Shown here piece by piece: positions 27,161 through 31,988 of a stretch of 36,853 nucleotides of DNA. Within the stretch, counting starts at the first letter, position 1. Each line of letters begins with the position of its first letter. The notes beneath the pieces are model-generated. The model was not told the DNA's origin, made no database searches, and saw only the letters and a list, made by a program, of their open reading frames with translations. Source of the DNA: a virus; the UHGV virus genome UHGV-0090257; one strand, given 5' to 3'. The translations under genes were made by a program, and so were the position numbers.

Positions 27161-27877
27161 ATGGAAAATAAAAAATCACTGACGACAGAACAGCTCGAAG
27201 ACGCTAAGCGGCTTAAGGCTTTGTATGAGTCAAAAAAGAAAGAATTGGGAATAACCCAATACTCAATCGCTGATGAACTGGGTATCACCCAAGGAGCGGT
27301 AGGGCATTATCTTAATGGCAGAAACGCGCTAAACGTTGAGGTTGCATCTGGTTTTGCACGACTGTTGCAAGTCTCAATTGCTGATTTTAGCCAGTCAATT
27401 GCTGCCAAGGTTGCAGAACAGGCAGAAAGCCTTAAGAGCGATGCCAACGTAAGGTATGCAGGGGAATACAGAGCAGGAAAGAGGTATCCGGTGTTAAGCA
27501 GTATCCAGGCTGGCTCGTGGTGTGAAGCATGCGAACCATACACCATTAAAGACATAGATGTTTGGCTTGAGTCTGACGCGCATATTCAAGGTAATGCGTT
27601 CTGGCTTAAAGTGGAAGGTGATTCAATGACGGCACCGGTTGGGTTAAGCATTCCAGAGGGAACATTCGTTCTTTTCGATACCGGAAGGGAGGCGATCAAC
27701 GGCAGCTTGGTCATAGCAAAACTTTCTGACTCTAACGAAGCAACATTCAAGAAGCTGATAATCGACGGCGGAAATAAATACCTCAAGGGACTTAATCCTG
27801 CATGGCCTCTCGTGCCAATCAATGGAAACTGCAAGATTATAGGCGTTGCAATTGAGACAAAACTAAGGCTGGTTTGA
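27161..27877 (+). CDS. cI: CI-type prophage repressor (HTH plus S24 LexA-like autopeptidase domain)
   Basis: 238 aa; N-terminal HTH (ITQYSIADELGITQGAVGHYLNG), A-G cleavage site in QAGSW, catalytic Ser in GDSM and Lys in FKKL. Confidence 0.9.
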   Translation: MENKKSLTTEQLEDAKRLKALYESKKKELGITQYSIADELGITQGAVGHYLNGRNALNVEVASGFARLLQVSIADFSQSIAAKVAEQAESLKSDANVRYAGEYRAGKRYPVLSSIQAGSWCEACEPYTIKDIDVWLESDAHIQGNAFWLKVEGDSMTAPVGLSIPEGTFVLFDTGREAINGSLVIAKLSDSNEATFKKLIIDGGNKYLKGLNPAWPLVPINGNCKIIGVAIETKLRLV

Positions 27878-27894
27878 TCACGCAAGGGGCGATT

Positions 27895-28263
27895 ATGGTT
27901 GGAACAGCTATAGCAAGCTTTTTTGGGATGTTGGCAATCTCGACAATTTACGGCTTAGCGCATGCTTTTATTGCGAAATCTCTATCAGAAAAAATAAGCC
28001 AGGCTTGGGCGCATAGATTAGCTCGTTTCATGATTCTAGTGATCATAGCAATACAAGGGATATCTGCATTTATCCTCTATGGTTCAAGCTTATACCTGTT
28101 GTATCAAGGCGCGACATTTACGCCTTACACCAGTGATTACGGAACGCTATACGATGGTAGTGAAGACATCTCTATGGCTTGGATCGTCTTTGGTTTATCT
28201 ATGGCCGTGTCTGTTGTAGCAGACATCATTAAGGTAATTCTCGTCTTAACCTTCGCTGACTAA
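27895..28263 (+). CDS. Small polytopic membrane protein co-oriented with cI (lysogenic accessory gene in the rex slot)
   Basis: About 122 aa from the ATG at 27895 (SD AAGGGG); at least three hydrophobic helices; starts 18 nt after the cI stop and ends before OL. Confidence 0.6.
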   Translation: MVGTAIASFFGMLAISTIYGLAHAFIAKSLSEKISQAWAHRLARFMILVIIAIQGISAFILYGSSLYLLYQGATFTPYTSDYGTLYDGSEDISMAWIVFGLSMAVSVVADIIKVILVLTFAD

Positions 28264-28838: not shown

Positions 28839-29138
28839 ATGACAGTAGTCATTACATATCTGGCTGACGATAACGCCAGAAATCGCCGCAGAGCACGCAG
28901 ACAGGCTCAACGTGAACAGGCAATGCAAGAGCAGCGACTGGCGCGAAAAATTGCGCTAAAGCTCTCTGGTTGCGTCAGAGCAGATAAAGCAGCATCACTC
29001 GGAAGCCTTCGCAGCAAGAAGGCAGAAGAAGTCGAGCGTAAACAGAACCGTATTTACTACCGCAAGCCCCGCAGTGAAATGGGTGTGACATGTGTTGGTC
29101 GCCAGAAAATGAAATTAGGCAGCAAACCACTTATTTGA
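28839..29138 (+). CDS. N: N-type transcription antiterminator
   Basis: 99 aa; N-terminal arginine-rich motif NARNRRRARRQAQREQA; first gene downstream of pL/nutL; SD GGAGGT. Confidence 0.8.
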   Translation: MTVVITYLADDNARNRRRARRQAQREQAMQEQRLARKIALKLSGCVRADKAASLGSLRSKKAEEVERKQNRIYYRKPRSEMGVTCVGRQKMKLGSKPLI

Positions 29139-29146
29139 GGTGATAT

Positions 29147-29338
29147 ATGGAACGTAAATTTGAAATTTGGTTGGATTCCGGCGCAAACATTCATTCTTGC
29201 AAAAAGACAGTTGTAACACTCGGTGATCTTGGCTTATCCGAGAATGAGTGGGATGAAATGGATCGGGACGAAAAAGACGAAAACATGCGTGATGTAGCAT
29301 TTGAAACGCTTGATTGGGGATGGAAGGAAATTAAGTGA
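29147..29338 (+). CDS. Hypothetical protein (N-proximal accessory ORF)
   Basis: 63 aa acidic ORF in an AT-rich segment immediately after N. Confidence 0.5.
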   Translation: MERKFEIWLDSGANIHSCKKTVVTLGDLGLSENEWDEMDRDEKDENMRDVAFETLDWGWKEIK

Positions 29339-29386
29339 TGGCCGCATAGTCGGCCTTTATTTTTGGCATAAACAACAGAGGCCAAC

Positions 29387-29683
29387 ATGGAATTTAAAGG
29401 TACTGAAGGTAAGTGGGAAATAATGATGGATGGCGATGAGATTAAAATCATCCAGGCAGACTCACTTGAAAATGGCGCAGGCTGGCGTTCGTATATTGCA
29501 ATCTGTGAGGAAGTTCAATGCATTGAAGATGCCAATCTAATAGCGGCAGCACCTGACCTTCTCGAAGCACTTCAGTTATTACTTAAGCAAACCAAAAATA
29601 GAACAACGACAACATATCCAGAATGGTATGGAGCTGTTAATAAAGGTCTTGTGGCAATCAGAAAAGCTCTTGGGGAAGAATGA
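29387..29683 (+). CDS. Hypothetical protein (N-proximal accessory ORF)
   Basis: 98 aa ORF, AT-rich codon usage, no family recognised. Confidence 0.5.
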   Translation: MEFKGTEGKWEIMMDGDEIKIIQADSLENGAGWRSYIAICEEVQCIEDANLIAAAPDLLEALQLLLKQTKNRTTTTYPEWYGAVNKGLVAIRKALGEE

Positions 29684-29841
29684 TGAATAAGAAATACATT
29701 GTTGAAGTTATAGAGCGAGAAACAAAAGAAGTAATTAAACATTTCGAATTTGATAATTATAGAAAAGCTGATCGCGTAGAAGAAGGATTGTTGCGACAAA
29801 GTAATCTCGAAAAATTTGATGTTGTCATGCGATGCGAATAA
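29680..29841 (+). CDS. Small hypothetical protein
   Basis: 53 aa ORF read by hand (MMNKKYIVEVIERETKEVIKHFEFDNYRKADRVEEGLLRQSNLEKFDVVMRCE), ATGA overlap with the previous ORF, very AT-rich. Confidence 0.4.
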   Translation: MMNKKYIVEVIERETKEVIKHFEFDNYRKADRVEEGLLRQSNLEKFDVVMRCE

Positions 29842-29934
29842 GCACCTATAGCAGATTTACGAGTCTGCTATGTGAGCAATGTCGCTCGTAACTAAACAGG
29901 AGCCGACTTGTTCTGATTATTGGAAATCTTCTTT

Positions 29935-29961
29935 GCCCTCCAGTGTGAGGGCGATTTTTTA
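29935..29961 (+). terminator. Intrinsic terminator in the early-left operon (tL-like)
   Basis: GCCCTC-cagtgt-GAGGGC followed by GATTTTTTAT. Confidence 0.65.
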
Positions 29962-29980
29962 TCTATGAGGATATGAATAG

Positions 29981-30349
29981 ATGTCAAACATCAAAAAATA
30001 CATCATTGATTACGACTGGAAAGCATCAATAGAAATTGAAATCGATCATGACGTAATGACAGAGGAAAAACTTCACCAGATTAATAATTTCTGGTCAGAC
30101 TCTGAATACCGACTCAATAAACACGGCTCTGTATTAAATGCTGTATTAATCATGCTGGCGCAACATGCTCTGCTTGTAGCAATTTCAAGCGACTTAAATG
30201 CATATGGTGTTGTGTGTGAGTTCGACTGGAATGATGGAAATGGTCAGGAAGGATGGCCTCCAATGGATGGTAGCGAAGGAATAAGGATTACCGATATCGA
30301 TACATCAGGAATATTTGATTCAGATGATATGACTATCAAGGCCGCCTGA
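29981..30349 (+). CDS. Hypothetical protein
   Basis: 122 aa acidic ORF, followed by the hairpin GCCGC-ctgagt-GCGGC at 30341..30360. Confidence 0.55.
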   Translation: MSNIKKYIIDYDWKASIEIEIDHDVMTEEKLHQINNFWSDSEYRLNKHGSVLNAVLIMLAQHALLVAISSDLNAYGVVCEFDWNDGNGQEGWPPMDGSEGIRITDIDTSGIFDSDDMTIKAA

Positions 30350-30424
30350 GTGCGGCTTTACCGCATACCAATAACGCTTCATTCGAGGCGTTTTCGTTAT
30401 GCAATCAAATATAAGGAGTTACCC

Positions 30425-30559
30425 ATGATGCACTTTCAGCTCGCGGGTAGCGGCGTCATGTCCGCTTTCTACCCGCACGAATCTGAATTATCACGCCGAG
30501 TTAAACAATTAATCAGAGCAGCAAAGAAACAACTGGAGGCGTTATGCGCAATGAAATAG
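30425..30559 (+). CDS. cIII: CIII-like protease (FtsH) inhibitor
   Basis: 44 aa from the ATG at 30425 (SD AAGGAG); MMHFQLAGSGVMSAFYPHESELSRRVKQLIR resembles lambda CIII (MQYAIAGWPVAG..ESLLERITRKLR) in pattern and position. Confidence 0.6.
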   Translation: MMHFQLAGSGVMSAFYPHESELSRRVKQLIRAAKKQLEALCAMK

Positions 30560-30696: not shown

Positions 30697-30800
30697 GTTT
30701 TACAGATAACTGGTCAGACGAAGAATTCATTCGTCAGATGAACAAAATGCTCAATCAGCACAAAGAACAGGAGAAAGATGATGATTCTGACTCTGAATGA
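30693..30800 (+). CDS. Very small acidic ORF
   Basis: 35 aa (MSFTDNWSDEEFIRQMNKMLNQHKEQEKDDDSDSE), overlaps both neighbouring ORFs; may not be expressed. Confidence 0.25.
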   Translation: MSFTDNWSDEEFIRQMNKMLNQHKEQEKDDDSDSE

Positions 30801-31089
30801 TAAGCGTGAAATATCGCAAATAATCGCAAGTTTTACTGATGAAGATTACGAACGAATCAACAGTGAAGTTGATCGCCTCTGCAAACGTTGCGACCCAATA
30901 AGCGAAATGCTTCGCTCATATAAACCAGATGAACACACTAAGGACGCTATCGACTGGCTGGAAGATGATGACTGTAACTATCAGGAAAAAGCCGCTGAAT
31001 GGTTCTGGGATGCAATAACCGAAAGAGTTAAGGCTGAATATGCCTTCGCAATATTCAAACGCAGACATATTTATGGAGAAGCTGCATGA
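30778..31089 (+). CDS. Hypothetical protein upstream of recT (Gam/Abc slot)
   Basis: 103 aa ORF, stop overlapping the recT start. Confidence 0.5.
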   Translation: MMILTLNDKREISQIIASFTDEDYERINSEVDRLCKRCDPISEMLRSYKPDEHTKDAIDWLEDDDCNYQEKAAEWFWDAITERVKAEYAFAIFKRRHIYGEAA

Positions 31090-31988
31090 GCAATATCGTT
31101 GAATTCGTTAAACAGCAAGAGCAGTTATTCTGCGGAGCATTGACTGAACAGACGGTGACATGGGCTAAGGAAAGCCAGTTTGCAATTCAGTATTTCCAGA
31201 AAAACGATTACCTGGCTAAAACAGCACTGGCAAATCCAACCAGCGCACAGAACGCCATTATCAATGTTGCGGCGATCGGCATCACCTTAAACCCGGCCAG
31301 CAAACTGGCTTATCTGGTTCCTCGCGAAGGCATGGTGTGCCTTGATATCAGTTACATGGGATTACTTCATCTTGCGCAATCGACAGGATCAATTAAGTGG
31401 GGGCAATGCAAACTGGTGTACTCAAACGACACCTATGAATCAAATGGCCTTGATTCAGCACCAACCCACAAATACAACGCATTTGGTGAGCGAGGCTCTA
31501 TTGTTGGAGGTTATTGCACGGTTAAAACAGCAGATGGTGACTACCTGACTGAAGAAATGAGTCTGGCAGAAATTAAAGCAGTTGAAGCAACGAGCAAGGC
31601 AAAGAATGGACCGTGGAAAACATTCTGGGAAGAGATGGCGCGTAAAACAATAGTTAAACGCGCCAGCAAATACTGGCCTAAAGCCCAGCGACTGGATAAT
31701 GCCATTCACCTGCTTAACGAAGATGAAGGTATGCATCAGGAACCAGTTATGCCGCACAAATCAGAGGAAGATATCCGCGAAGATGAACGGAAACGCCAGC
31801 AGGAAATAATGGATAAAGCACAACTTCTTTGCGATGAAATGGCTCAGGCAGAAAACATGGACGATTTGAAGCGATATTTTGCAGAAGCATATCGCCTGAC
31901 ATCTGGAATGAAATTGCAGCAGAACGTACAAGCCATTTACATAGAATGCAAAGCGAAACTGGAGGTTGCCAGTGAGCAAACTGTATGA
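31086..31988 (+). CDS. recT: RecT-family single-strand annealing protein
   Basis: 300 aa; NGPWKTFWEEMARKTIVKRASKYWP matches the conserved RecT core (NGPW..HWEEMAKKTA.RRL.KYLP) as remembered. Confidence 0.85.
   Translation: MSNIVEFVKQQEQLFCGALTEQTVTWAKESQFAIQYFQKNDYLAKTALANPTSAQNAIINVAAIGITLNPASKLAYLVPREGMVCLDISYMGLLHLAQSTGSIKWGQCKLVYSNDTYESNGLDSAPTHKYNAFGERGSIVGGYCTVKTADGDYLTEEMSLAEIKAVEATSKAKNGPWKTFWEEMARKTIVKRASKYWPKAQRLDNAIHLLNEDEGMHQEPVMPHKSEEDIREDERKRQQEIMDKAQLLCDEMAQAENMDDLKRYFAEAYRLTSGMKLQQNVQAIYIECKAKLEVASEQTV

Follow-up and report, generated by a model that had tools for sequence, protein, structure and literature searches.

What occupies the AT-rich segment between the genes N and cIII in the virus genome UHGV-0090257, and does its base composition betray a recent arrival? 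The window analysed is the whole 36,853-nt stretch of this genome, to whose letters all coordinates refer, and the segment in question (positions 29139-30360, hereafter the block) had been described in an initial annotation as a set of unknown open reading frames (ORFs), bounded by terminators, suggested to be a recent acquisition, and placed where lambda and P22 carry ral and sieB. Our results suggest that the block is probably an accessory segment next to N in the early-left (pL) operon of a lambdoid phage, composed of three exchangeable cassettes with hairpin/T-run recombination junctions and encoding early lytic proteins that likely bind host proteins. Judged by the genes recognised around it, the block lies in the pL operon directly after N, and two of its parts, the gene ea10 and the small RNA (sRNA) PreS, are by their identity essentially lambda's own. 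In addition, orf98, orf53 and ea10 are genuine coding genes under purifying selection, with ratios of nonsynonymous to synonymous polymorphism (pN/pS) of 0.15-0.30. The elements of the block are the following.

29147-29338, + strand: orf63, an acidic 63-aa DUF7167 protein (isoelectric point, pI, 4.4; Pfam PF23768, phrog_8831)
29340-29365, + strand: hairpin and T-run GGCCGCATAGTCGGCC TTTATTTTTG, with 5 GC pairs (fold of -11.9 kcal/mol, z=-1.9)
29387-29683, + strand: orf98, a 98-aa protein of Phage_P22_Y8K6, the P22 orf78 family (Pfam PF27050; phrog_1273 at E=1e-31)
29680-29841, + strand: orf53, a near-neutral 53-aa protein (pI 5.8; phrog_6949 at E=3e-40)
29843-29874, + strand: stable hairpin immediately 5' of PreS (-13.4 kcal/mol, z=-4.0)
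29874-29960, + strand: PreS/LPR1 small RNA including tL2a, identical in 87/87 nt to the segment between ral and ea10 in lambda
29981-30349, + strand: ea10, the acidic 122-aa lambda Ea10 protein (DUF2528; pI 4.3; 121/122 residues identical to lambda Ea10)
30373-30397, + strand: hairpin between ea10 and cIII, at the right edge of the block (-14.8 kcal/mol, z=-3.9)

The ORFs of 63, 98 and 53 aa, the strong terminator and the 122-aa ORF reported just after N were all found where the initial annotation had placed them, the first ORF beginning 8 nt past the N stop codon (N, 28839-29138) and each of the four being preceded by a Shine-Dalgarno-like sequence. The terminator scan returned a strong 8-bp stem at 29933-29954, with 5 GC pairs and a TTTTTT run behind it, together with weaker hairpin/T-run sites after orf63 (29340-29355) and in the ea10-cIII spacer (30373-30392). 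The number of such sites (4, versus 2.9 +/- 1.9 in shuffles) is no enrichment by itself, and all three + strand sites are kept in relatives. The block is thus bounded by a hairpin at its cIII edge but not at its N side, where none was found, and the other two hairpins are internal. The N-to-cIII slot of a lambdoid pL operon was rightly recognised, since cI, N, cIII, kil and recT were identified around the block, and relatives do hold in it ral, sieB, P22 gene 17, pentapeptide-repeat, Nmad5 and HNH genes; neither ral nor sieB was found in the window's own slot. Likewise, the label 'unknown' suits the three small ORFs, which are uncharacterised, but not the 122-aa ORF, which is lambda Ea10, and the element taken for a plain strong terminator proves to be lambda tL2a, which forms the 3' end of a published sRNA.

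Alignments with phage 21, lambda, mEp043 and APC_JM3.2 resolve the block into three cassettes with conserved junctions between them. The cassettes would be orf63 with its hairpin, orf98-orf53 with PreS/tL2a, and ea10 with its hairpin, each ending in a conserved hairpin/T-run that would double as a recombination junction. Indeed, a 21-nt core of the 29340-29365 element recurs without change in mEp043, APC_JM3.2, lambda and phage 21. This hairpin (GGCC...TTTATTTTTGGCATAAA) comes after ral in lambda and phage 21, after orf63 in the window, and before the orf98-family gene in mEp043 and APC_JM3.2; the element serves both as a junction between cassettes and as a weak site resembling a terminator. 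At the right edge, lambda and phage 21 keep the ea10-cIII hairpin in near-identical form as far as TTCGTTATG, beyond which the cIII modules diverge. At the left edge, the N stop, the ribosome-binding site and ATGGAA are common to the window and phage 21. The shared sequence after the N stop, TGAGGTGATATATGGAA, opens orf28, followed by ral, in phage 21, whereas it opens orf63 in the window. Between identical junctions, orf63 sits where lambda and phage 21 have orf28 and ral. The orf98-orf53 pair is an insertion between the hairpin after orf63 and PreS.

Lambda shares with the window the N-cIII operon position, PreS/tL2a, Ea10, the hairpin after ral, the ea10-cIII hairpin and a low GC content (about 40%). 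However, orf28-ral of lambda is replaced in the window by the unrelated DUF7167 gene orf63, lambda is without the orf98-orf53 cassette that the window carries between this hairpin and PreS, and lambda sieB lies on the opposite strand, where the window has no such ORF. The phage mEp043 carries orf63-hairpin-orf98-orf53-PreS at 98% DNA identity, but has an Sf6 gp33-like gene of 322 aa where the window has ea10, and its deposited orf63 is truncated by a 1-nt deletion. APC_JM3.2 carries hairpin-orf98-orf53-PreS-ea10 at 97%, with an Nmad5-domain gene where the window has orf63; note that this nucleotide-modification-associated protein (contig L002, 1887-2510) is mis-annotated as 'Smchd1'. In P22 and ST104, the slot likewise comes after the N analogue (gene 24) and before c3, and ST104 ORF18 is 45% identical to orf98 and belongs to the same PF27050 family. 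In contrast to orf98, ORF18 has as neighbours ral, a gene for a pentapeptide-repeat protein and gene 17, which bears the annotation 'superinfection exclusion protein' (Pfam GP17), and the ral-gene 17 interval has no orf53 partner, PreS or ea10. The pentapeptide-repeat protein is ORF19 (L005, 1817-2461), just upstream of the orf98-family gene. Moreover, SI8 has an HNH endonuclease as alternative cargo in the slot, and some relatives have nothing in place of ea10.

How strongly the parts hold together was estimated from 80 IMG/VR viral loci (L015-L094), all recovered by carrying orf53. In 64 of them, the orf53 start coincides with the end of an ORF of at least 60 aa; 53 of these match a strict LIAAAP-type motif, the remainder carrying near-variants. 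An orf98 relative is placed upstream of orf53 by tblastn in 65 of the 80 loci. PreS (at least 96.6% identity) is present in 66 loci, its start always exactly 32 nt past the orf53 stop, and the hairpin found after orf63 in 60, whereas ea10 occurs in 10 and orf63 in 3. These counts indicate that orf98-orf53-PreS is a tight unit and that orf63 and ea10 assort independently. Within this unit, the orf53 start overlaps the orf98 stop (ATGA), so that the two genes are translationally coupled. The upstream neighbour of PreS is ral in lambda and orf53 in the window and in the 66 PreS-bearing loci, 56 of which are without ea10, unlike lambda; the conservation of PreS is therefore independent of its ral and ea10 neighbours.

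The PreS segment agrees with its lambda counterpart in sequence, terminator hairpin, U-tail and location upstream of ea10. The 87-nt identity block fits the length of the LPR1 RNA (~88 nt) and, without a mismatch, lies well inside the definition of a homologue used by the PreS authors (at least 92% identity to lambda LPR1 and at most 3 gaps; bioRxiv 10.1101/2024.10.31.621285). Its predicted fold (-28.9 kcal/mol, z=-3.35) has a 5' stem, a single-stranded centre and the terminator hairpin, in which the tL2a stem (29933-29954) and the U-run (29955-29960) provide the 3' end of an Hfq-type sRNA, i.e., a GC-rich hairpin followed by UUUUUU. In lambda, LPR1/PreS binds Hfq, measures about 88 nt and has tL2a as its 3' end; this sRNA, produced during the lytic cycle, supports phage DNA replication, activates dnaN translation and represses alaS (bioRxiv 10.1101/2024.10.31.621285). 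Rfam has no PreS model, and a scan of it with a permissive cut-off yielded nothing beyond one chance match to the S15 leader (E=0.93). Immediately 5' of PreS, the 29843-29874 hairpin has a lambda counterpart at the same place (~33,9xx-34,0xx; -18.8 kcal/mol, z=-5.9) with a different stem sequence, so that the structure is kept between the window and lambda and the sequence is not. The 3' foot of this hairpin falls where the ~88-nt PreS should have its 5' end, and the hairpin may be a processing signal for that end.

Concerning the coding status of the ORFs, each of the small ORFs matches a PHROG at E<=1e-31. The pN/pS values, computed pairwise over the alleles collected in this analysis, are 0.15 for orf53 (23 unique alleles), 0.21 for ea10 and 0.19-0.30 for orf98, and internal stops are absent from nearly all alleles in this set. 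With low pN/pS and homologues in distant phages, the ORFs are conserved as coding in relatives. The ea10 product matches PF10800 at 159.9 bits (cut-off 22, E=3e-47) and is similar to lambda Ea10 over its full length. The exact proteins are present on at least 1000 (orf53), 145 (ea10), 35 (orf63) and 17 (orf98) public contigs. For orf63, the alleles are too few for pN/pS to be informative, and its coding status therefore rests on distant homologues: it covers positions 1-59 of the 60 of the PF23768 profile (32.9 bits, cut-off 24.4), matches phrog_8831 at E=1e-32, and has homologues with 37-56% identity in Salmonella, Aeromonas, Vibrio and Synechococcus phages. Alleles of orf63 that are frameshifted or truncated occur repeatedly (proteins P0129-P0133), one example being the 1-nt deletion in the mEp043 c-1 record (L001, ~2590; GCAAAC-TTC), and 25 contigs carry a 58-aa variant whose N-terminus differs. 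The gene may often be inactivated. A diverged Ral was ruled out for orf63, which gave no alignment to lambda Ral at E<=100, and no block ORF matched the Ral family in Pfam or NCBIfam.

The products of orf63, orf98 and ea10 are acidic (pI 4.3-4.6) and that of orf53 near-neutral; no membrane protein is predicted among the four, and none matches an enzymatic domain. A scan of all block ORFs against NCBIfam gave no match, searches of PDB sequences with orf63, orf98 and Ea10 (single sequences and profiles) gave nothing below E=0.3, and PADLOC-DB v2 returned no family at E<=1 for orf63, orf98, orf53, ea10 and two flanking ORFs of 129 and 103 aa (orf129 and orf103). As for anti-defence proteins (Ocr, ArdA, Acr, Tad, Gad), no PDB sequence matched, a dedicated search with anti-defence hidden Markov models not having been made. 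No functional study of these proteins came up in literature searches on DUF7167, DUF2528, ea10 with defence, P22 orf78 and mEp043, and reviews describe most early-left operon genes of P22-like and lambdoid phages as lacking known function (PMC8022706, PMC12315714).

How would such a block be used? The promoter scan found only two 9/12 matches in the block, both on the minus strand, and their total is below the shuffle expectation. Because the genes lie on the pL strand, have no convincing internal promoter and are separated by terminators, their expression is expected only early in the lytic cycle or after induction. In this scheme, RNA polymerase modified by N would read through the hairpins and express the block, while termination at tL2a, or processing beside the hairpin upstream of it, would set PreS free. 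By analogy with what is published for lambda, PreS would then bind Hfq, raise dnaN translation and aid phage replication. The products of orf63, orf98, orf53 and ea10 would most likely be stoichiometric binders of host proteins, in host takeover or counter-defence, and this N-dependent early lytic expression, as we infer it, favours such binders over defence genes expressed in the lysogen. Since no defence or counter-defence family was matched, calling these genes candidates for counter-defence draws on their position alone; a counter-defence role of the block proteins is our guess from position and the logic of expression. Several points weigh against the scheme as a whole. Indeed, no homology or experimental link ties orf63, orf98, orf53 or Ea10 to a host target, restriction or defence; the promoter scan used a simple consensus, which weak or non-sigma-70 promoters could escape; the function of PreS is known from one preprint on lambda and not from the phage of the window; and the predicted structure of orf98, whose N-domain is of low confidence, matched only uncharacterised proteins among the viral structures of BFVD.

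Among the other explanations, a more specific one concerns orf98 and orf53, which would form a counter-defence module of variable specificity, with a conserved scaffold, a swapped tip that tracks host immunity proteins, and orf53 as partner. The PF27050 assignment (taken from precomputed Pfam hits on the identical protein and on homologues) places orf98 in a very large family, whose profile search gave 10,882 cluster representatives at E<=0.001, nearly all of them stand-alone and about 100 aa long; two long 'multi-repeat' matches (P0145 and P0161) are low-complexity repeat proteins and were discarded. The protein consists of an N-terminal beta domain, an invariant LIAAAPDLLEAL helix, a hypervariable middle (residues ~60-89) and an invariant AI.KALGEE tail, and its motifs (N-terminal F-K-G-T-x-G-x-W, the LIAAAPDLLEAL helix and the AI-x-KALG tail) vary little or not at all across family alignments. 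Between LIAAAPDLLEAL and AI.KALGEE, roughly 25-55 residues are not alignable across relatives. Among 41 cluster representatives with the N-domain type of the window, 18 unrelated middle segments were counted, with a median pairwise identity of 0.27 for the middle versus 0.85 for the N-domain and 0.89 for the tail. At the DNA level, the breakpoints are sharp and fall at the LIAAAPDLL-coding and tail-coding motifs, and N-domain types, which themselves reassort independently, combine with middle types in several ways.

In the AlphaFold2 model of orf98 (27-sequence alignment, mean predicted local distance difference test, pLDDT, 69), a low-confidence three-stranded N-domain is followed by a confident helical hairpin (H45-70, H77-95), and the variable part falls at the tip of this predicted hairpin. 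The early position in the operon and the ATGA coupling to orf53 throughout would also suit a module of this kind. However, the wider PF27050 family is mostly without the orf53 partner, no similarity to any characterised anti-defence protein emerged from the PADLOC, BFVD fold and PDB sequence searches, and a structurally unconstrained loop combined with recombination at conserved motifs could equally explain the hypervariability. The variability may therefore reflect arms-race specificity switching, or a tolerant loop between recombination-prone motifs. The context of three distant PF27050 members consisted only of short contigs with strings of unannotated small ORFs. Altogether, we consider a counter-defence module possible but unlikely. 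A fuller version, in which orf98 and orf53 form a shuffled early module whose swapped hairpin tip selects the variant of host immunity or host factor to be neutralised, and which is welded to the replication-boosting PreS, seems to us doubtful.

Alternatively, the small ORFs could be defence or superinfection-exclusion genes expressed by the prophage, as analogues of sieB or rex. The slot does carry sieB in lambda, P22 and ST104, and a moron-like precedent exists for orf63, a lone and oppositely oriented DUF7167 gene lying among tail genes of Aeromonas phage AsC4_1. Nevertheless, the ORFs of the block all point in the pL direction, unlike sieB, whose annotation in lambda and ST104 is on the opposite strand, the block has no promoter-like site on its + strand, and orf98-orf53 are welded to PreS, an sRNA of the lytic cycle. 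In addition, these are small soluble proteins that lack membrane segments, enzymatic domains and PADLOC matches. SieB itself (a membrane protein of ~190 aa, encoded on the opposite strand between N and ral) had no family match among the + strand ORFs, the only ones scanned, and the only minus-strand ORFs in the block, of 86 and 75 aa, are antisense to + strand genes. We thus hold a prophage defence role to be improbable, and retain the N-dependent lytic cassettes as the preferred reading.

A recent foreign origin of the block had been proposed from its AT-richness. The composition was indeed confirmed as uneven: the GC content of the block is 39.7% versus 46.2% window-wide, 49.7% for N and 45.4% for recT (30.9% for orf53 and 39.0% for ea10), within the lowest 3% of equal-length windows, with only positions 1-1500 lower. 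Note that this last region (minimum of 34.4% over 1.2 kb) overlaps a 553-aa minus-strand ORF at 86-1747. A rarity argument points the same way, since the exact combination is rare, with only 2 of 5,426 complete Escherichia coli genomes covering at least 80% of the 1.8-kb N-to-cIII query. However, the homologous slot is equally AT-rich in lambda (40.1%, against about 50% for lambda N) and in phage 21 (39.9%); low GC is therefore a standing property of the cargo of this slot and no evidence of recent acquisition. Moreover, ea10 and PreS are 99-100% identical to those of lambda, the parts are common in enterobacterial prophages according to the contig counts above, and the full arrangement also occurs in the public contigs L007 and L013. 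The pattern is one of reassortment of old lambdoid cassettes and not of import from outside their gene pool, and we give a newly arrived foreign island little credence.

Ea10 invites a proposal of its own, namely that it is a free-standing SPFH-like domain acting on HflKC-FtsH and cooperating with the adjacent cIII in the lysis-lysogeny decision. HflKC cages FtsH, which is inhibited by cIII, the product of the neighbouring gene, and because of this the SPFH resemblance is intriguing. The AlphaFold2 model (56 sequences, pLDDT 95) has a beta-beta-alpha4-beta layout whose SPFH resemblance is nevertheless weak. Foldseek against the PDB found nothing (best E=2.7), a profile search of PDB sequences gave no match, and cIII often occurs without ea10 (contigs L010 and L014, in addition to the 56 PreS-bearing loci mentioned above). 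Furthermore, Ea10 is non-essential in lambda by CRISPR interference (PMC10695390). We regard this role as very unlikely. The label 'single-stranded DNA-binding protein', which ea10 bears in several records, was also set aside, as neither an oligonucleotide/oligosaccharide-binding (OB) fold nor another fold of single-stranded DNA-binding proteins was found. Finally, that the small ORFs are chance open frames in an AT-rich spacer, as their shortness (53-98 aa), AT-rich DNA and lack of any characterised function could suggest, is extremely improbable in view of the pN/pS of 0.15-0.30 and near absence of internal stops, the PHROG match of each ORF and the Pfam matches of orf63 and orf98, the protein-level homologues in distant phages, the Shine-Dalgarno sequence before every ORF and the coupled stop/start of orf98 and orf53, and it is already refuted for orf98, orf53 and ea10, orf63 having frameshifted alleles.

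Around the block, the + strand carries in order a cI-type repressor, a 129-aa membrane ORF, N, the block, cIII, kil, a 103-aa ORF and recT. The named genes are the following.

27161-27877, + strand: cI-type repressor (HTH_3 and Peptidase_S24 in the identical public contig L007)
28839-29138, + strand: N-family antiterminator of 99 aa, the left flank of the block (phrog_271 at E=2e-36)
30425-30559, + strand: cIII, the right flank of the block (PF08134 at E=5e-30; a 44-aa gene is called in the matching contig L007)
30544-30696, + strand: kil (family searches)
31086-31988, + strand: recT (family searches)

Among them, cIII is the FtsH-inhibitory lysogeny factor. The N protein is 70% identical to phage 21 N overall and nearly identical to it over residues 33-99; it is a hybrid, with phage 21-like C-terminal two thirds and a differing N-terminal arginine-rich RNA-binding segment, and a different nut-site specificity is therefore expected. 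Between cI and N, the 129-aa ORF (27874-28263; phrog_6534) has several hydrophobic segments, no Pfam or PADLOC match, and a TTG start that overlaps the cI stop codon. As it sits at the position of lambda rexA/rexB, it is a candidate for a membrane or exclusion protein expressed in the lysogen. Between kil and recT, an acidic ORF of 103 aa (30778-31089; phrog_3486, pI 4.65) occupies the position of lambda gam.

Altogether, the block is mostly explained as one more permutation of the known mosaic early-left region of lambdoid phages, half of it being lambda's own, and its three conserved hypothetical genes are already abundant in databases. Two features are of specialist interest, namely that the link of PreS to the orf98-orf53 cassette is much tighter than its link to ral or ea10, and that a hypervariable segment is swapped by recombination within the very large PF27050 family. 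In practical terms, the analysis leaves a short list of three small and abundant early proteins, together with Ea10, which are without assigned function and simple to clone, in a slot where other phages have ral, gene 17 and DNA-mimic-like proteins.

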